Below, piece by piece: positions 1,718 through 52,378 of a DNA stretch of 64,000 nucleotides; the stretch's first letter is position 1; each line of letters begins with the position of its first letter. Under the pieces are notes generated by a model, which made no database searches, was not told the DNA's origin, and saw only the letters and a program-made list of their open reading frames with translations. The translations under genes and the position numbers were made by a program. This DNA is from a virus (lineage: Duplodnaviria > Caudoviricetes). The DNA lies in IMG/VR virus record IMGVR_UViG_3300016486_001578. One strand, given 5' to 3'.

Positions 1718-1807
1718 ATGAGAACAAGTAACACACATACAAACCGACAAGAGCTTCCCCAAGAGGAAACCAGTTCATTATGTGGAGTTAATATGTGTAT
1801 GGAATAA
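1718..1807 (+). CDS. putative attenuator leader peptide 1 (29 aa)
   Basis: MRTSNTHTNRQELPQEETSSLCGVNMCME, between promoter and a terminator preceding tRNA-Pro. Confidence 0.6.
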   Translation: MRTSNTHTNRQELPQEETSSLCGVNMCME

Positions 1808-1832
1808 ACACATTTGTTTTTTAAAGATATTT

Positions 1833-1868
1833 AAAAACCCTCTACATTAACTTGTAAGAGGGTTTTTT
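1833..1868 (+). terminator. intrinsic terminator/attenuator upstream of tRNA-Pro
   Basis: AAAAACCCTCTACA-loop-TGTAAGAGGGTTTTTT hairpin with U-tract. Confidence 0.8.
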
Positions 1869-1877
1869 AATTTATAT

Positions 1878-1951
1878 ACGGTAGCGATCCATTGGTGTGG
1901 TTACCTCATTTGGAATGAGGGTTATTGTGGGTTCAACTCCCACCTACCGTA
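1878..1951 (+). tRNA. tRNA-Pro(UGG)
   Basis: Acceptor ACGGTAG/CTACCGT, anticodon arm CCTCA-TTTGGAA-TGAGG, T arm GTGGG-TTCAACT-CCCAC. Confidence 0.8.
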
Positions 1952-2028
1952 CAAATACCTATATTTGTATAAATAAATAAAAATATGCAAAAAGAACCAT
2001 CAATAGGGTCTTCCCGCCAAACAGCGGG

Positions 2029-5007: not shown

Positions 5008-5793
5008 CTATTTTTTAAGTGTTTTAATAAAATCATCACTTATATCATCATATGGTGTTATATCTTCCGCCTTTTTATATTTACCATCACTAAGTAATAT
5101 CATAAAATTGGATTTAACATCTATTTCATAGTCGCCAAAATTTAGAATAGTGTATTCTACTTTGGTTTTAGTTTTCTCCATTTCTTTCTTAATTATCTCT
5201 CTATTCTTACCACTAATAGAACCATCAATATAATAAAATTCCTTATCCGGTATCTCCGATTTTAATTTATTTAATAATCTCTTACCATGTTCAATTGTAT
5301 AAAATAAAACTAATGTATTACCATCACATTTATCTACTATTTTCTTTATAAAATCTAATCGCTTTTCGGATATATGTATATAATCCTTTTCTAAACCGAA
5401 GGCTTCTTTTCCAAGACCGGCCTTTCGAACTTCGTTTATCTTATCTCCAAAATCAGAATCATTATGGTTTATTATCACTGCTTTTATCTCCATTGGCGTA
5501 ACAATTCCTTTTTTCTTTAATTCTGTTGCGGAAACTTCTGTTATTTTGGGCCCAAGAACAGATTGTATAGTTAATATCTCACAAGTGTCTTCTTCTGGTA
5601 TAGTACCACTAACACCAAATCTAGAATAAGCATGTCCGAATGTTTTTCCTAATATTTTAGTATATGTCTTGGCTTTAGACTGATGACAATTACTAACACA
5701 AACACTATTTGCAAAATAGTTATGATTGTCCTTTATCCTTAAATTATAAACATCACCACTATATCCTATCTTTTTAATACACTTAATCTTCAT
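5008..5793 (-). CDS. uvsW: split-intein C-part fused to UvsW-like fragment 2, ending in an intein-like tail
   Basis: VYNLRIKDNHNYFANSVCVSN|CHQ, then GVSGT motif III and RecA2 region. Confidence 0.85.
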   Translation of the reverse strand: MKIKCIKKIGYSGDVYNLRIKDNHNYFANSVCVSNCHQSKAKTYTKILGKTFGHAYSRFGVSGTIPEEDTCEILTIQSVLGPKITEVSATELKKKGIVTPMEIKAVIINHNDSDFGDKINEVRKAGLGKEAFGLEKDYIHISEKRLDFIKKIVDKCDGNTLVLFYTIEHGKRLLNKLKSEIPDKEFYYIDGSISGKNREIIKKEMEKTKTKVEYTILNFGDYEIDVKSNFMILLSDGKYKKAEDITPYDDISDDFIKTLKK

Positions 5794-6608
5794 TTATATC
5801 TTTTTAATTTTCTGATTATATTATCACCATCTGGTTGGTTATCTAATAGGTGTATGAATTTTTCTTTATTCTCTATTATCCAATCTTCTGTTATGTAAAT
5901 AAACTCATAACCATTTAATAAACACCATTCTTCGGCATATCTTCTTTTTGTTGTATTTTTTGATAGACCAATAGTTGATTTTGGTTTTATCTCATATAAT
6001 ATTTTTTCATCATAATCAACAAAATCTATTATATAATTATGTGATATATCTTTAAATAAATATTCTATTCGTATATCTTCGTATAATAGTTTGGGGTTAC
6101 ATAGATGAAAGAAAGCCTCCCAGGAAGATCTATATCTAAATTTTTTATTATCAATGGTTAAGTATGAGAAACTACCGTGCCAGCTATTTGTAATGTTTGG
6201 AGTGAACGAACCATTTTTTATATTAGCCTTCATTTTCTTTGAATTTTTTCTACACATATTTTTGAAAGTTTCCTCAGACATTCTATGTGATGTGTTATTT
6301 TCACCCATTTGTCTAATTGATATACTTTTGTTATAACAATTATCTGAACAAAAACTATTAAATCCAAAATTTTCTTTATTTCTAATACCGACAAATATTC
6401 TTTCATTATCACATTCATCAATTTGGCATTTTTTTTCAATATTTTTAAGGTATGCGATTACATTTTTTATTGATATTTTAAAATTAAAATTTATGTTATT
6501 TTTTTCTAAAAATAACATAAATTTCTCTTCTTTCTCCTTCCGATTGAATATTGAGTATCTTTTTTCAAATATTAATTTATATATTTTATCCTTTTGCTTT
6601 TGATCCAT
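5790..6608 (-). CDS. free-standing TnsA-like PD-(D/E)XK endonuclease between the split-intein halves
   Basis: YRSSWE...YIIDF...YEIKP; Cys-containing N-terminal part. Confidence 0.75.
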   Translation of the reverse strand: MDQKQKDKIYKLIFEKRYSIFNRKEKEEKFMLFLEKNNINFNFKISIKNVIAYLKNIEKKCQIDECDNERIFVGIRNKENFGFNSFCSDNCYNKSISIRQMGENNTSHRMSEETFKNMCRKNSKKMKANIKNGSFTPNITNSWHGSFSYLTIDNKKFRYRSSWEAFFHLCNPKLLYEDIRIEYLFKDISHNYIIDFVDYDEKILYEIKPKSTIGLSKNTTKRRYAEEWCLLNGYEFIYITEDWIIENKEKFIHLLDNQPDGDNIIRKLKRYK

Positions 6609-6625
6609 GTCCTTCTGTGCTTTTG

Positions 6626-7729
6626 TTATATATTAAAATTAATATCCAATATTTCTTCATCAACATTTAATTCATCGACCCTTTTCCATTCACCACTTAT
6701 TAGTTTTACTTTATGATTGCCTGTTATTTTTAATACTTCTCCGTTATCTAGTGATATCTCATATATATCATCAGATTTTGTTAGATTCTTATAAACAAAA
6801 TCAACTTCTTTATTTTCTATTAGGAGGCTTTCTTCATTTATGGTTTTGACAAAATCGCCTATTTTTATTTCGGATATATTTTTTTTTGATCCATCTGACA
6901 TAGTTATTTTAGTAGATGGGTGCAAACACTCATCAGTTATCACCGTATGAAACTGTTTAAAGAAGCTTTTTGGCCACTTATCTAGTGATTGATAAGTTCC
7001 TATGTATATGTTAGCATCTTTTGTTCCGGTGTGTTTTCTTGGCTTCTCCGACATTATCTCCTCAACTCTTATATCACAAGCAGTATATTTTACTTCTTTT
7101 GTTAATATAGCGTCTAATTTAGCATCTCTTACTTCAATTAAATTATTTATACCATGATTATACTCAACTATATTATCATAAAATTGTGTAACTAATGTTA
7201 TTGATGGTACTATTATCAAGAATTTAGCACTTTTGTCTATCTTATGTAATGTATAAAACATCACGATTGATATTATCAGTGATTTTCCACCAGATGTGGC
7301 AACTTCGGCCATACAATATCTATTTTTTAGAATTTTATAAGCACTCTCTACTTGATGATCATATGGAGTAAATGATATCCAATCTCCACTCTTTGTCTTT
7401 ATTTTATGATTTTTGAAAAATTCATCACAAAAATCTTTCACTTTCTCTAAAGTAACATCTCTATTTATTGGGAAGTCTTCTTTATTTTCTAAAATGAAAG
7501 GAACGCCTATTTCCTGACAAGCTCTAAGTGATTCTTTCCAAAGGCCTAAATTTATCTTACCATCTCTAAAATATGAATTTTTGCCATTCCAAACACCCAT
7601 CTTAACCAATGGCATATATTTATATCCCTTAACATGTCTTGTTAACCAAAGATCAAGCTGGTGATACTCTATTCGTGTTGCCTCACTAACAACTATCTCT
7701 TCTTTTTTCTTATCATATCTAAATTTCAT
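6626..7729 (-). CDS. uvsW: UvsW-like fragment 1 fused to split-intein N-part (100 aa, 6928-6629)
   Basis: PYDHQ, Walker A ATSGGKS, IIVPS, TYQS, ITDE|CLHPSTKITMSDG...ITGNH. Confidence 0.9.
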   Translation of the reverse strand: MKFRYDKKKEEIVVSEATRIEYHQLDLWLTRHVKGYKYMPLVKMGVWNGKNSYFRDGKINLGLWKESLRACQEIGVPFILENKEDFPINRDVTLEKVKDFCDEFFKNHKIKTKSGDWISFTPYDHQVESAYKILKNRYCMAEVATSGGKSLIISIVMFYTLHKIDKSAKFLIIVPSITLVTQFYDNIVEYNHGINNLIEVRDAKLDAILTKEVKYTACDIRVEEIMSEKPRKHTGTKDANIYIGTYQSLDKWPKSFFKQFHTVITDECLHPSTKITMSDGSKKNISEIKIGDFVKTINEESLLIENKEVDFVYKNLTKSDDIYEISLDNGEVLKITGNHKVKLISGEWKRVDELNVDEEILDINFNI

Positions 7730-39253: not shown

Positions 39254-40343
39254 ATGTCAAATTGGAAAGTATCTAAAGAAAATATTGAGTTATTTGTTCA
39301 CACAAATGCTGATGGTCTAGATTTGGGCAAAGTTGGATCTTATCAAGTTGTCGTTCAGAAAGGACTTTATAATGATGGTGATGAAGTTATATTCGCACCT
39401 GAAAAATCTGTATTAAGTGGTCAAATAAAATTAGAATTTGAAAATTATTTGGCCGGACCAAATTAGAGACAGAGTAAAGGGAGTTAGGCTTAGGGGAGAA
39501 ATATCTTCTGGTATAATTATACCTAAACATTTAGTTCCGGATTTTGAAGATATAGAAGTTGGTGTTGATGTTTCTGAAATCTTGGGAATTCACAAATATG
39601 AACCACCAATTCCAGAGGAACTACTTGGCGATGTTAGTATAATTGAAATGAATAACATAGGAACTCATGATTGTGAGCAAGTCGGTATTTATATAAATGA
39701 TCTTATAAAGGGAGAAAGGGTTGTAATTTCTGAGAAATTACACGGAACTCAAATAGTAATGGTTCATAATATAGAAACTGATGAAACTATTTTATCATCA
39801 AAGGGTCTTTTAAAAACCGGATTATCAATAAATGAATCAGATTCCAATAAATATTGGATAGCCGCTAACAATGTTGATTTAGTAAATCTTATTAAATCAA
39901 ATTTTAAAAGTGGAGTTGTTCAAATTTTTGCCGAGCTTATACCAATTCAACCTGGTTATGGTTATGGACAAGAAGAACCAACTATTAGAATATTTGATAT
40001 AAGGTTAAATTCCGAATCAATTCCATATGACAAAGTACCGACAGATTTTTCCAAAATCTGGGTACCGATTATTTACGATGGTACTTTAAATCTCGAAGAG
40101 AAAGAGGTAATTCTTCATGAAGATGAAGAGAAAGGAATCCGTAAAGTTAAAATCAATAATGTCCTTCCAAAAGAGATTATTAGTTTTAGCAAAGGTATGG
40201 AATTGGTTTCTGGAAAAGGATTACACATCAAAGAAGGGGTTGTAATAAGTCCTTATATTGATAGGTTTGCTATGGATGGCACTAGATTGCGATTGAAAGT
40301 AATAAATCCAAAATACAAAGAGACTGGTGATGAAATAAATTAA
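39254..40343 (+). CDS. RNA ligase, DRB0094-like (one-base frameshift near 39463)
   Basis: HTNAD...RLRGEISSG N-domain; EKLHG, AEL, FDI, EGVV, LKVIN motifs. Confidence 0.85.
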
Positions 40344-48084: not shown

Positions 48085-48116
48085 TTTGATATTATGAAAA
48101 CTATTTCATATATTTG
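48085..48116 (+). promoter_or_regulatory. Bacteroidota-type sigma70 promoter of the tRNA operon
   Basis: TTTG (48085-88), 20 nt, TATATTTG (48109-16): perfect consensus; TTAATATATA also at 48147-56. Confidence 0.75.
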
Positions 48117-48180
48117 TGTTATAATACAAAAAGAGAGACAAACAATTTAATATATACAACAACAATAAATTAAGAATAAA

Positions 48181-48273
48181 ATGAAAACAATGACTACAAT
48201 GACAAAAAATATGAATACGGCAATTAATGCGGTGGGCGGAAATATTCGTGTCAGAGAGTTATGTATAATTTAA
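48181..48273 (+). CDS. putative attenuator leader peptide 2 (30 aa)
   Basis: MKTMTTMTKNMNTAINAVGGNIRVRELCII; residues 1-22 match the downstream tRNA set. Confidence 0.8.
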   Translation: MKTMTTMTKNMNTAINAVGGNIRVRELCII

Positions 48274-48294
48274 AAATATAAAATATAAAATTAT

Positions 48295-48327
48295 AAAAAC
48301 CCTCTGAGAAATCAGAGGGTTTTTTTT
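48295..48327 (+). terminator. intrinsic terminator/attenuator upstream of the tRNA cluster
   Basis: AAAAACCCTCTGA-GAAA-TCAGAGGGTTTTTTTT. Confidence 0.9.
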
Positions 48328-48339
48328 GTTTATGAATAT

Positions 48340-48413
48340 AGCGATATGGTGAAATTGGTTTATCACATGCTCCTCATAAGGGTAAATTCCGAGTTCGAGT
48401 CTCGGTATCGCTA
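48340..48413 (+). tRNA. tRNA-Met(CAU) (Ile2 not excluded)
   Basis: Acceptor AGCGATA/TATCGCT; loop CTCATAA. Confidence 0.88.
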
Positions 48414-48419
48414 CAAAAA

Positions 48420-48492
48420 GGGACCATAGTTTAATTGGCAAAAATAGTTGGCTTGCACCCATCAGACCCGAGTTCGACTCTCGGTGGATCCA
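48420..48492 (+). tRNA. tRNA-Ala(UGC)
   Basis: Loop CTTGCAC; G3:U70. Confidence 0.85.
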
Positions 48493-48520
48493 CAAGAAGG
48501 AATTCTATAAATTCAAAAAC

Positions 48521-48596
48521 GGGGTGACATGTTCCAAGGCTTTGGCGAGTTTGGTTTGCAACCAGACTGTGGTGGGTTCGATACCCATTCGCTCCA
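48521..48596 (+). tRNA. tRNA-Ala(UGC), atypical D arm
   Basis: Loop TTTGCAA; G3:U70; T arm GTGGG-TTCGATA-CCCAT. Confidence 0.75.
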
Positions 48597-48626
48597 CAAA
48601 AAGAAGGAATTCTATAAATTCAATAA

Positions 48627-48700
48627 TCCTTAATAACTCAGAGGTCTAGAGTGCCGTCCTGTTAAGTCGGAAGTCCTTGGTTCGAATCCAAGTTAGGGAG
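48627..48700 (+). tRNA. tRNA-Asn(GUU)
   Basis: Loop CTGTTAA; G73. Confidence 0.88.
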
Positions 48701-48732
48701 CAAAAAAAGAAGGAATTCTATAAATTCAACAT

Positions 48733-48804
48733 TGGTACGAATCCGAATGGTTAGGAGGCAAGCTGTTAACTTGTTATAAGAGAGTTCGATTCTCTCCGTG
48801 CCAG
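48733..48804 (+). tRNA. tRNA-Asn(GUU)
   Basis: Acceptor TGGTACG/CGTGCCA; loop CTGTTAA. Confidence 0.85.
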
Positions 48805-48870
48805 CTTAAAAAAGACTAATAACATTCTTTGTTAATAGACCATTATAATTAATAATAAAAAATATTAATT

Positions 48871-49329
48871 ATGATGAAAAAAATAAAGAATACTAAAAAA
48901 GTCACTGATAAAAAAATAAAAGAAATTAAAAAATTATATGAAAAACTAAAAAGTTCTAGAAAAGTAGCCGAGAAACTAAATATTTCAAAAACAACAGTAC
49001 TAAAATATACATCAACAAAAAAGATAATAGTTGATGATGAGACAAAAAAGAAAAGAGTCAAATCTGTTATAAGTTGGAGAAAAAGGAAGAAAAGAGAATT
49101 AGTAGAATACAAAGGAGGTAAATGTGAAATATGTGATTACAATAAATCACTTAGATCTCTAGATTTTCACCACAAAAATCCAAAAGAGAAGGATTTTGGA
49201 ATATCAGGAAAATCGTATTCTTTTGATAGATTAAAAAAAGAGGTGGATAAATGTGTGCTTGTTTGTAGTAATTGTCACGGAGAAATACATGATGATATAG
49301 AGCAATTTGGTTATTCAAATAAGATATAA
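48871..49329 (+). CDS. HTH + HNH homing endonuclease
   Basis: YKGGKCEIC...DFHH...CSNCHGEIH. Confidence 0.85.
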   Translation: MMKKIKNTKKVTDKKIKEIKKLYEKLKSSRKVAEKLNISKTTVLKYTSTKKIIVDDETKKKRVKSVISWRKRKKRELVEYKGGKCEICDYNKSLRSLDFHHKNPKEKDFGISGKSYSFDRLKKEVDKCVLVCSNCHGEIHDDIEQFGYSNKI

Positions 49330-49343
49330 GGAGGAAATTAAAA

Positions 49344-49814
49344 ATGGAAGATTTTAAAAAAGAAAGTGGAAAAGTTATTTATGATGTAAAAGAGTATATA
49401 TTGGATATTTTAAAAAACAATAAAGATACTAAAATACACATAGGAACTGATAGCCAAAAAAGGAAAGGAAAGTGGATACACTTTGCGACAGTTATATCTT
49501 TTAGATATGGAACAAGGGGAGCACATTATATTTATGCTTTCAGAAAAGAAGTAATGTTCAAAACTGTTGTACAAAGGTTGATGAGGGAAATTGAATTAAC
49601 CGTTGATTTATACCTTTGGTTAAAAGATGTGGTAGGAATAACTGCAAATGTCTTGGAAGCAGATGTTAATGAAGACAAAAAGTGGAAAAGTAATTTAGTA
49701 TATAATGCCGCTACGGGGTGGTTGATGGGAGTATCAGCACCAGAAACAGAAGTTTTGGCTAAGCCAGATCTTTTGGTAGCGGTTCGAGCAGCGAATCATT
49801 TATGTAATAGATGA
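49344..49814 (+). CDS. RNase H-like YkuK family protein
   Basis: IHIGTDSQ...ATVI...RLMRE...EADVN. Confidence 0.75.
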   Translation: MEDFKKESGKVIYDVKEYILDILKNNKDTKIHIGTDSQKRKGKWIHFATVISFRYGTRGAHYIYAFRKEVMFKTVVQRLMREIELTVDLYLWLKDVVGITANVLEADVNEDKKWKSNLVYNAATGWLMGVSAPETEVLAKPDLLVAVRAANHLCNR

Positions 49815-49885
49815 TAGATTGGGGTCTTCGAACTTATAGTTAGAGTCTTGCGCCAAGTAAAGCAAGAAACAAAGTAAACTAAAAA

Positions 49886-49971
49886 GCGCCTTTAGCTCAG
49901 TTGGTATCCGAGAGGTGAAGAGCATCCGCCTTTTAAGCGGAGGGTCATAGGTTCGAGTCCTATAAGGCGCA
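49886..49971 (+). tRNA. tRNA-Lys(UUU) with D-loop insertion
   Basis: Acceptor GCGCCTT/AAGGCGC; loop CTTTTAA. Confidence 0.88.
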
Positions 49972-50001
49972 CAAAATGAAAAAGAAAGAAACATTGAGTA
50001 T

Positions 50002-50082
50002 ACTCACATACCGTCCTAACCTGATAAGTTAGAGAAACGTAATTGGTTGTTGAAAATGTCGGTTCGATTCCGTCTGTGAGTA
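50002..50082 (+). tRNA. D-armless tRNA-Ile(GAU)-like RNA
   Basis: Perfect acceptor ACTCACA/TGTGAGT; CTAAC-CTGATAA-GTTAG; T arm present; no D arm; ~25-nt variable region. Confidence 0.65.
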
Positions 50083-50153
50083 CAAAGTCAAAAAATTAAC
50101 CATTGTGGTGAATAAAAGGCTCATAAGTTTTAATATATAAAAATAAAAAACTT

Positions 50154-50741
50154 ATGAAAACAAGAGATAAAGTAATAGAATTAAAAAAAATAGGAAAAAG
50201 TTATGACGAAATAAAAAAAGAATTAAATATATCAAAATCGACAATTAGTTATCACTGTAAGAGATATGGCCTAGATTACATAGGACCAACGAAAAAATTA
50301 GACGAATTAACTATAAAAGAAATAAAAAAATTCTGCGAAAGTAATACAATAAAGGAAGCCTCGGAAAAATTCAAGGTCTCTATAAGCTCAATAAAAAGAT
50401 ATAAAAGAAAAAAAGAAAAAATATCTTTAACAGATATAGAGAAGAAAAATAAACAAGTAACAAGAATAAGTAATTGGAGAAGAAAAATAAAACTTAAAGC
50501 ACTCGAATATAAGGGAGGTAAGTGTGAAAAATGTGGATATAATAGGTGTGTATCATCTATGGATTTTCATCATTTAGATCCAAATGAAAAAGATTTTGGA
50601 TTAAGCGGTAGTATAAAAAGTTGGGAAATAACAAAAAAGGAATTGGATAAGTGTATTTTGGTTTGTAAAAATTGTCACGGAGAAATACATAATAAAATTG
50701 AAGAAGAAAAGAGAGAAAAAAGATTAAAAAAATATAAATAA
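50154..50741 (+). CDS. HTH + HNH homing endonuclease (paralog of 48871)
   Basis: YKGGKCEKC...DFHH...CKNCHGEIH. Confidence 0.85.
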   Translation: MKTRDKVIELKKIGKSYDEIKKELNISKSTISYHCKRYGLDYIGPTKKLDELTIKEIKKFCESNTIKEASEKFKVSISSIKRYKRKKEKISLTDIEKKNKQVTRISNWRRKIKLKALEYKGGKCEKCGYNRCVSSMDFHHLDPNEKDFGLSGSIKSWEITKKELDKCILVCKNCHGEIHNKIEEEKREKRLKKYK

Positions 50742-50743
50742 AT

Positions 50744-50816
50744 GCTGGTGAAGCTCAATAGGAAGGGCGTCTGTTTTGTAATCAGAAAGCTGTGGGTTCG
50801 ACTCCCATCACTAGCT
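50744..50816 (+). tRNA. tRNA-Thr(UGU)
   Basis: Loop TTTGTAA; acceptor GCTGGTG/CACTAGC. Confidence 0.85.
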
Positions 50817-50821
50817 CAAAT

Positions 50822-50905
50822 GCTCCCGTGGTGTAATTGGTAACATCCTTCCCTTACATGGAAGAGACGAGAAGTAAAACATAGGTTCGAATCCTATCGG
50901 GAGTA
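50822..50905 (+). tRNA. tRNA-Val(UAC) with long variable region
   Basis: CTTCC-CTTACAT-GGAAG; 16-nt variable region. Confidence 0.8.
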
Positions 50906-50918
50906 CAAAAATAAAAAT

Positions 50919-50992
50919 GCTAGTGTAGCTCAGTTGGTCAGAGCAGGGATCTTGTAAGTCTCAGGTCGTAGGTTCGAATCCTATCACTAGCT
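50919..50992 (+). tRNA. tRNA-Thr(UGU)
   Basis: Canonical cloverleaf; loop CTTGTAA. Confidence 0.9.
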
Positions 50993-50998
50993 CAAAAT

Positions 50999-51073
50999 GG
51001 GAGTATATCTCAGTTGGTTTAGAGCAATTGTTTTACACACAATAGGTCGGGGATTCGAATTCCTCTAGTCCTA
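50999..51073 (+). tRNA. tRNA-Val(UAC)
   Basis: ATTGT-TTTACAC-ACAAT. Confidence 0.8.
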
Positions 51074-51084
51074 CAACACCATAA

Positions 51085-51171
51085 GCGGGTGTAGCTCAGT
51101 TGGTTATCCGAGAGGTGTAGAGCGTCAGTCTTCCAAACTGAGGGCCGTGGGTTCGAGTCCCACCATCCGCT
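51085..51171 (+). tRNA. tRNA-Gly(UCC) with D-loop insertion
   Basis: GCGGGTG/CATCCGC, U73, loop CTTCCAA. Confidence 0.88.
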
Positions 51172-51231
51172 CAAAAAATATAAGCCATAGGAGAATCTCG
51201 GATTTAATATATAATAAAATTAATGACGTAA

Positions 51232-51896
51232 ATGAAGTGGCAAAAAGGAGAAGAAATAGAATTATTAGAATTATTAAAAGAAGGTAAAAATTATATTGAA
51301 ATAGAAGAAATACTAAACAGGAGTAAGAACTCCATAAGGAATAAATCTCAAAAAATGGGATATTCCTTACAATCATTTAAGATACAAAATAAAAAGTGTA
51401 TATTTTGTAAGAAAAATTTTAATTATAATTGTAGAGACGAAAAAGAAAGGAGTAAAATATTTTGTAATAGCTCATGTTCCGCTAGTTATAATAACAAATT
51501 AAGAAATAAGAAAGGGAAAAGTGTGAGATATGTGATAAGAAAACTAATAATATAAAAACATGTAGTATGATTTGTTATCAAGAATTATTATTCTTGGAAG
51601 GGTTGGAAAAATTTAATAAGGGTTATTTAATAAATAACCGAGCAATTAAAAAATATCTAATATATTTATATGAAGAAAAGTGCTCTAATTGTGGATTAGG
51701 AAATTATTGGGATAACAAATTCTTATCAATACAGGTTGATCATATTGATGGTAATTCCGATAATAACTCAAAAGATAATGTTAGGCTATTATGTCCAAAT
51801 TGCCATTCACAAACACCAACATTTGGTATAAAGGGAGGAAACAAAAACAAAAAAGATAATAGAAATATATATCGAAAAAAATATAGACAAAAATGA
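51232..51896 (+). CDS. HNH homing endonuclease (two track ORFs joined by a frameshift near 51520)
   Basis: HTH, CxxC, FCNSSC, then QVDHIDG...LCPNCH. Confidence 0.75.
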
Positions 51897-52201
51897 TTAA
51901 ATGGATAAAAAAATATTTAATTCCGAAGAAAAAAGAAGAATACATTCCCTATGGAATGTGTCCAGGATTTTATATTAAGGTAAATGATAGTTCTTGGATA
52001 CAAGGACATATGGTTATTAAAAAATCAGACAACGAAGCCGAGATAAGAAAGAAATTTAATGATTTGATAGTTAAATTTTGCAAAGAAAGAAACCTAAGCA
52101 AAGAAGAGACAGAAAAAAATCTAAAAAATAATAACCTAGATTCATATTTTGGAGCCGATGATATACCGGATTGGTATATCCCACCCAAGGCGAAGGGGTA
52201 A
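51893..52201 (+). CDS. hypothetical protein
   Basis: ATGA-coupled ORF. Confidence 0.55.
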   Translation: MIKWIKKYLIPKKKEEYIPYGMCPGFYIKVNDSSWIQGHMVIKKSDNEAEIRKKFNDLIVKFCKERNLSKEETEKNLKNNNLDSYFGADDIPDWYIPPKAKG

Positions 52202-52209
52202 TTAATAAT

Positions 52210-52283
52210 GCGGATGTAGCTCAGTTGGTCAGAGCGTTAGTTTTCCAAACTAAGAGTCGTGAGTTCGATTCTCTCTACTCGCT
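52210..52283 (+). tRNA. tRNA-Gly(UCC)
   Basis: Loop TTTCCAA; GCG start; U73. Confidence 0.82.
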
Positions 52284-52288
52284 CTTAT

Positions 52289-52378
52289 GTAGTATATTCT
52301 CAGTTGGTACAGAGATAAAAAACAGGCAGAAAAATTATTGAAGTTTTGTCATAGTTTGGTTCGATTCCAAAATCTACT
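52289..52378 (+). pseudogene. degenerate tRNA-like element
   Basis: D arm CTC-AGTTGGTACA-GAG and T arm TTTGG-TTCGATT-CCAAA; no recognisable anticodon arm. Confidence 0.5.

Follow-up and report, generated by a model that had tools for sequence, protein, structure and literature searches.

A putative leader-peptide attenuator ahead of a phage tRNA block, and matching leader-terminator-tRNA units in other phages

We analysed a stretch of 64,000 nucleotides (hereafter the window) of the virus record IMGVR_UViG_3300016486_001578, in which 13 tRNA or tRNA-like genes for eight amino acids (in order Met, Ala, Ala, Asn, Asn, Lys, Ile, Thr, Val, Thr, Val, Gly, Gly) follow a promoter, a short open reading frame (ORF) and an intrinsic terminator. 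An initial annotation of this DNA had proposed that the short ORF encodes a leader peptide whose codons mirror the downstream tRNA set and whose translation sets a transcriptional switch.

The leader region and the tRNA block

The leader region contains the following elements.

48085-48116, plus strand: Bacteroidota primary-sigma promoter, -33 TTTG at 48085, 20-nt spacer, -7 box TATATTTG at 48109-48116
48147-48156, plus strand: phage promoter-like motif TTAATATATA, possibly a second leader promoter
48181-48273, plus strand: putative leader ORF of 30 codons, sensing stretch at about codons 2-21 (48184-48243)
48187-48204, plus strand: possible anti-antiterminator strand, predicted to pair with 48249-48264 if the ribosome is absent
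48251-48260, plus strand: predicted antiterminator strand, pairing with the terminator 5′ arm 48298-48307
48295-48327, plus strand: intrinsic terminator with a 13-bp stem, GAAA loop and U8, the leader stop lying 22 nt upstream

The promoter, ORF and terminator named in the initial annotation were all found again. TTTG, 20 nt and TATATTTG fit the Bacteroidota -33/-7 consensus (PMC6847099), and an orthologous unit on contig L385, described below, has kept the -7 box; a sigma-70 scan of the window stayed at chance level (50 matches against 48.5 expected). The ORF has A at -3, -6, -12 and -13 before its start, which is the Bacteroidota initiation context, and a 13-codon ORF (48227-48268) overlaps it, starting within the leader in a different frame. 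Folding gave two structures, the terminator at -20.6 kcal/mol (z -6.4) and, with the transcript cut at the terminator loop, the antiterminator at -11.9 kcal/mol (z -4.8 to -6.0), whose helix continues via 48264-48271/48288-48295. The segment 48251-48260 is identical to the terminator 3′ arm (48312-48321) at 9 of 10 positions, and its postulated ability to sequester the 5′ arm was borne out by the fold; the antiterminator is predicted to exclude the terminator and overlaps the ORF end. The anti-antiterminator (1:2) pairing is weak in the window (z -2.1) and is not conserved in L385. An Rfam Phe_leader match at 48277-48328 was rejected, with 25.9 bits against a threshold of 55 and covering the terminator alone, and Rfam gave no match here to a T-box (stem I, specifier loop, T-box bulge).

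Leader residues 1-22 comprise all eight amino acids of the cluster and no others, as had been noted, and all eight are present by codon 19; as a sensing stretch this segment has to be narrowed to about codons 2-20/21, the first five codons of such leaders being generic. The eight amino acids make up 46.7% of the window proteome, and the resulting chance of 0.467^21 = 1e-7 exaggerates the rarity for the same reason. In each of 103 other leaders, at most 84% of residues 2-20 belong to this set. Five other assemblies are concordant over the leader-tRNA stretch, and searches with the exact leader pattern and with the atypical tRNA-Ala pattern gave no matches in viral or genome contigs.

Besides the tRNAs, the region downstream of the putative attenuator contains HNH genes and a gene for an RNase H-like protein.

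48340-48414, plus strand: tRNA-Met(CAU), 1-72 paired, without three G-C anticodon pairs
48420-48493, plus strand: tRNA-Ala(UGC), G3:U70
48521-48597, plus strand: atypical tRNA-Ala(UGC), G3:U70, region 95% identical in L385
48627-48701, plus strand: tRNA-Asn(GUU), found by ARAGORN and Rfam
48733-48805, plus strand: tRNA-Asn(GUU), found by ARAGORN and Rfam
48871-49329, plus strand: inserted HTH-HNH endonuclease-like gene, absent from L385
49344-49814, plus strand: gene of an RNase H-like protein (PF04308), at the same position in the orthologous L385 cluster
49886-49972, plus strand: tRNA-Lys(UUU), D-loop insertion
50002-50082, plus strand: tRNA-Ile(GAU)-like RNA without a D arm
50130-50139, plus strand: internal phage promoter-like motif, before the HTH-HNH gene 50154-50741
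50744-50817, plus strand: tRNA-Thr(UGU), found by ARAGORN and Rfam
50822-50906, plus strand: tRNA-Val(UAC), found by ARAGORN and Rfam
50919-50993, plus strand: tRNA-Thr(UGU), found by ARAGORN and Rfam
50999-51074, plus strand: tRNA-Val(UAC), found by ARAGORN and Rfam
51085-51171, plus strand: tRNA-Gly(UCC), D-loop insertion
51204-51213, plus strand: internal phage promoter-like motif, before the split HNH gene 51232-51896
52210-52284, plus strand: tRNA-Gly(UCC), found by ARAGORN and Rfam

All 13 tRNAs for eight amino acids were retrieved, with their identities, by an independent anticodon caller. ARAGORN found 11 of the 13, missing Ala-2 and Ile and calling Lys and Gly-1 as Leu; the two Leu calls were rejected on anticodon arms with a 5-bp stem and a 7-nt loop, and are caused by a short D-loop insertion that is the same in both tRNAs. 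Rfam placed 10 tRNAs above threshold and Lys slightly below it. The paired 1-72 and the lack of three G-C anticodon pairs show that tRNA-Met is not of the initiator type, and a homologue of the atypical tRNA-Ala is annotated as tRNA-Ala in Pseudomonas phage VCM. The D-armless tRNA-Ile form, with its long variable region, occurs in the window, at L385:1400-1485 and at L122:11726-11805, with compensatory anticodon-stem changes across the three phages. Directly after the last tRNA-Gly lies a degenerate tRNA-like remnant (52289-52378) with D and T arms and no anticodon loop. A 20-nt spacer is repeated three times between the first tRNAs (48496, 48603, 48709) and occurs once in L385 (L385:383), reflecting either module duplication or a processing signal.

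Leaders and tRNA sets across phages

Units comparable to that of the window were gathered by pattern, as a terminator followed by a T loop, and leaders were assigned without regard to the tRNAs behind them, by the rule that an ORF of 12-45 codons must end 18-42 nt ahead of the terminator. Such a leader precedes 127 of 142 viral or metagenomic terminator-headed tRNA clusters; the same rule was satisfied at 51 of 264 other terminators of the same loci and at 2 of 11 clusters in bacterial genomes. In 104 de-duplicated units, the fraction of tRNA amino acids present in the own leader was 0.946, against a null of 0.666 +/- 0.021, and the fraction of cognate leader residues was 0.491, against 0.287 +/- 0.010, with none of 20,000 shuffles near the observed match. 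The trend is present for all 20 amino acids, and the own terminator arm pairs with the own leader better than foreign arms do in 85 of the 104 units.

The phages LR756502 and LR745206, found because their DNA weakly matches the window in its promoter region, have six or seven scored units each, with distinct tRNA sets (Phe/His/Lys/Trp, Arg/Ser, Glu/Tyr, Ala/Gly/Ile, Asp/Pro, Gln), and one of the two also has the eight-amino-acid block. Within these genomes the true pairing of leaders and clusters came out on top among 720 and among 5040 permutations, and the own pairing was better in 23 of 23 swaps inside other loci. These within-genome tests argue that kinship of the genomes is not the explanation of the match, and together with the statistics of the 104 units they give strong support to the covariation between leader and tRNA content that the initial annotation had named as a check.

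At the other end of the range, leaders of about 40 codons with nearly all 20 amino acids stand before whole-set arrays (L413, L439, L461, L462, L481, L485, L490, L497). The cultured Cellulophaga phage phi38:1 (L512:5284-8800) has three units, at about 35283, 36744 and 37990 of KC821614, that split most of the code among them; several of its tRNAs are without GenBank annotation, and published RNA-seq exists for this phage and Cellulophaga baltica (PMC5335546), in which six non-coding RNAs of the phage are reported. We consider the leader-terminator-tRNA design to be real, conserved and widespread.

Conservation of the window leader itself is documented by L385, the one contig in which a distant relative of the cluster's RNase H-like gene was found (59% identity). 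Its unit has no HNH genes; the leader (L385:80-154) has 24 codons, the first 14 of which cover the same eight amino acids completely and encode no other, and it is followed by tRNAs for Met, Ala, Asn, Asn, Lys, Lys, Ile, Thr, Val and Gly, after which the contig ends. The terminator 5′ arms of L385 and the window differ at 4 of 10 positions, all four of which are still paired with the 3′ arm, and for three of the four differences the antiterminator (L385:136-144) has the compensatory change, as expected from selection on both helices, in a comparison of two sequences only. Relatives of the neighbouring genes in viral contigs led to no orthologous cluster.

The position of the matching codons is consistent with control by a stalled ribosome. 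Relative to the start of the predicted antiterminator, on which the units were aligned, the cognate fraction was 0.66-0.78 at codons -11 to -4, 0.49 at codon -3 and about background (0.28) from -2 on, and it was also at background in the first five leader codons. The sensing zone as a whole gave 0.66-0.68 against 0.28-0.32, and the tail 0.32-0.34 against 0.27-0.30; the sensing-zone result was stable at 28% de-duplication and also without the window unit. The footprint of a ribosome whose A site is empty reaches about 12 nt past that site, so that codon -4 is the last stall position leaving the antiterminator free. The equivalent in the window is codon 20-21, and folding with the ribosome footprint predicts the edge of the switch at codon 20/21, in agreement with the edge of the enrichment.

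The match extends to codons. Clusters with Ile(UAU) only have ATA in their leaders in 13 of 16 cases and those with Ile(GAU) only have ATY in 21 of 24, the Arg box likewise follows the isoacceptor (AG 15/16, CG 13/17), and readable leader codons overall number 233 against 178 expected (z 6.6). In the window leader both sensing Ile codons are ATT, and 70% of the Ile codons of the window are ATA. Of 305 cognate amino acids counted over the leaders, 114 are represented by one codon and 77 by two, with a median of two across units; since sampling is mostly by one to three codons, mild starvation may fail to trip the switch.

The proposed switch and its rivals

Taken together, the covariation, the conservation in L385 and the stalled-ribosome geometry support the attenuator reading of the initial annotation, and we regard ribosome-mediated transcription attenuation of the tRNA block, acting as negative feedback on tRNA supply, as very probable. 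According to this model, host RNA polymerase would start at the Bacteroidota-type promoter and a ribosome would translate the leader. Fast reading of the Met, Lys, Thr, Asn, Ala, Ile, Val and Gly codons would carry the ribosome beyond codon 21, where it would cover 48251-48260, the predicted terminator would form and the tRNA genes would remain off. If a cognate tRNA were missing or unusable, the ribosome would wait at or before about codon 20-21, the antiterminator could pair with the emerging terminator 5′ arm, and read-through into the 13 tRNAs would supply those that decode the very codons at which the ribosome had stalled. The terminator is more stable by about 8 kcal/mol, so such a switch must be kinetic, like textbook attenuators.

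The signal is most likely the loss or shortage of specific tRNA species in infection, through host tRNases or general tRNA decay, in view of the fact that extra tRNA cannot cure starvation and that the leader codons follow the anticodon and not the amino acid alone. A more specific version, held by us at somewhat short of an even chance, is a modular isoacceptor-specific sensor in which each tRNA block has its own leader, so that the phage would transcribe no block but the one replacing the tRNAs removed by a defence nuclease or by decay.

Several observations weigh against the attenuation model. The units were preselected by the terminator-plus-tRNA pattern and are phylogenetically non-independent. 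In the footprint folding the predicted contrast is strong in L385 (0.85 to 0.10) and modest in the window (0.84 to 0.53), where the model also dips to 0.62-0.68 when the ribosome stalls at codons 16-19. Strict wobble leaves a Thr codon (ACT) and a Gly codon (GGC) of the window leader unread, exact Watson-Crick codons show no enrichment over all units (234 against 261 expected), and the sole Lys and Ile tRNAs of the window cluster are structurally odd. A further point comes from a second unit in the window.

1718-1952, plus strand: second leader-terminator unit, leader 1718-1807, antiterminator at about 1780-1787, terminator at about 1833-1868, tRNA-Pro(UGG) 1878-1952

Its leader contains His, Arg, Gln, Glu, Leu and Pro codons, and tRNA-Pro alone stands behind it, as a single tRNA in all assemblies seen. 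The leader composition resembles that of the third phi38:1 unit, and the second unit is probably a truncated block; a leader richer than its tRNA set implies that a leader can outlast its cluster.

Promoter-like motifs inside the cluster count against the model as well. The motif TTAATATATA occurs on both strands of the window, 28 times where 3.2 +/- 1.3 would be expected; most copies lie 8-45 nt ahead of a gene start, and the motif is probably a phage promoter, resembling the T4 late promoter. Its copies at 50130 and 51204, each ahead of an inserted HNH gene, may let the last six tRNAs bypass the attenuator. In this genome the switch might be partly bypassed or decaying, the HNH genes having brought promoters and much of the tRNA output being constitutive or late, a rival explanation that we rate as well short of an even chance. 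The absence of the HNH genes from L385, the loss of most of the predicted tRNAs of the second unit and the tRNA-like remnant at about 52289-52378 are in line with such decay; the leader, antiterminator and terminator of the window are nevertheless intact and match L385, no such motif lies upstream of the first seven tRNAs within the cluster, and the five assemblies agree over the stretch.

Somewhat less probable is that the same attenuator senses amino-acid starvation through uncharged tRNA, in the manner of thrL or ilvL, the tRNAs being co-induced in a starvation response. It is established that a stalled ribosome is blind to the difference between an uncharged and a missing tRNA; moreover, aspartate is the common precursor of Met, Lys, Thr, Asn and Ile, and some related leaders have long runs (poly-Gln, Ser/Arg). 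Against this, more tRNA does not cure starvation, the leader codons track the downstream isoacceptor, the sampling of most amino acids once or twice is unlike that of tandem starvation sensors, and the phage groupings differ from one another and ignore biosynthetic families (Glu+Tyr, Asp+Pro, Phe+His+Lys+Trp).

A general sensor of translation slowdown, comparable to whiB7, in which any stall would open the terminator and the codon match would be historical, appears very unlikely to us: the generic first five codons and the leaders of the whole-set-array phages, with nearly all 20 amino acids, would suit it, whereas different clusters of the same genome come with different matching leaders, something for which a general sensor would have no use, and the match is restricted to the sensing zone. 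Chance, that is a short ORF ahead of an ordinary terminator in AT-rich DNA, is largely refuted, since the 19% of other terminators that pass the short-ORF rule and the frequency of Met, Lys, Thr, Asn and Ile at AT-rich N-termini are outweighed by an ortholog with compensatory changes, the permutation tests, the positional edge and the codon-level match.

Genomic setting, known systems and meaning

The window lies within a 560,843-bp contig from salt-lake metagenome runs. One of its proteins has its best matches in uncultured phages of 635-735 kb and in Cellulophaga phages, and another in Prevotella Lak phages; these matches and the -33/-7 promoter point to a huge phage of a Bacteroidota host. 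The same phage has a class II aminoacyl-tRNA synthetase-like gene beside IF3 (L516:7450-9257), an RNA ligase gene (L379:1-998; window about 39300-40343) lies 8 kb upstream of the tRNA block, and at 5008-7729 of the window a helicase gene is split by an intein with a TnsA-like endonuclease ORF. The tRNA-Pro of the second unit is followed by a stable non-coding hairpin at 1996-2075 (-24.8 kcal/mol), with a TAnnTTTG box at 1960 and no Rfam match, and two leucine-rich-repeat genes come after the unit. No more tRNA blocks were found in about 16 kb and about 20 kb past the window ends.

The phage unit has the features of leader-peptide attenuators that can be tested on sequence, except tandem control codons, the 1:2 hairpin being predicted in the window and not in L385: promoter, short ORF and intrinsic terminator precede the putatively controlled genes, the control codons are related to the function of these genes, and their placement would leave the antiterminator free during a stall; in the window leader each amino acid has one to four codons, scattered and not in tandem runs. 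The mechanism is known from amino-acid operons (PMC11857589), and thrL, the ilvGMEDA leader, Corynebacterium ilvL, trpL, hisL and pheL have a promoter, an ORF with control codons and exclusive antiterminator and terminator structures set by the ribosome, as proposed for the phage unit. The phage unit differs from the multivalent thrL/ilvL type by sampling eight amino acids, mostly with one to three codons that follow the isoacceptor, by its occurrence in phages and by standing before tRNAs and not biosynthetic enzymes; it would gate tRNA genes, and not genes that make or charge an amino acid, and thus falls outside the group of biosynthetic operons.

Closer in purpose are the pheM-pheST and Salmonella trpS2 leaders, where leader-peptide attenuation likewise tunes the translation machinery and responds to a poorly decoding tRNA (bioRxiv 10.64898/2026.09.09.750475); their output is the synthetase of one amino acid, encoded on a host chromosome, whereas the phage output would be the tRNA set itself. 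A functional analogue is the Anabaena trn operon, a silent array of 26 tRNAs activated by translational stress under TrcR control (PMC10272220); its control depends on a DNA-binding repressor, is not codon-specific and involves no leader peptide. In T-boxes, too, the choice between terminator and antiterminator is set by tRNA status; unlike the phage unit, they bind the tRNA directly via the specifier loop and need no translation.

A likely reason for carrying replacement tRNAs is supplied by studies of phage tRNAs that replace cleaved host tRNAs (PMC10264068) and are reported to act against tRNA-cleaving defences such as PrrC, VapC, retron Ec78 and PARIS (PMC10264068, PMC11555353, PMC11464382). 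These studies concern the function of the tRNAs, and the text of PMC10264068 does not mention attenuation. A switch that reports a missing tRNA species would fit PMC10264068, extra tRNA giving no relief from starvation. In agreement with the initial annotation, which knew of no described attenuator over a phage tRNA array, a literature search that reached few subscription journals found no published attenuator on tRNA genes, of phages or otherwise.

The units are useful for annotation, since a leader predicts which amino acid belongs to an unusual tRNA that scanners overlook or misassign, and they offer small natural sensors for the activity of individual tRNAs. The design is testable in phi38:1 and its host, which are cultured, with three units in the phage. 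Read-through of the terminators would be a direct readout of the tRNAs that fail in infection. If the modular sensor holds, Bacteroidota phages would widely possess an inducible counter-defence made of RNA and the ribosome alone, and the tRNAs under attack could be predicted from the leaders. Attenuation would be extended to tRNA genes and to viruses. Why phages carry tRNAs has long been debated, between codon compensation and the replacement of cleaved host tRNA; tRNA genes that stay off until the reading of their own codons slows down would mark these tRNAs as conditional replacements.

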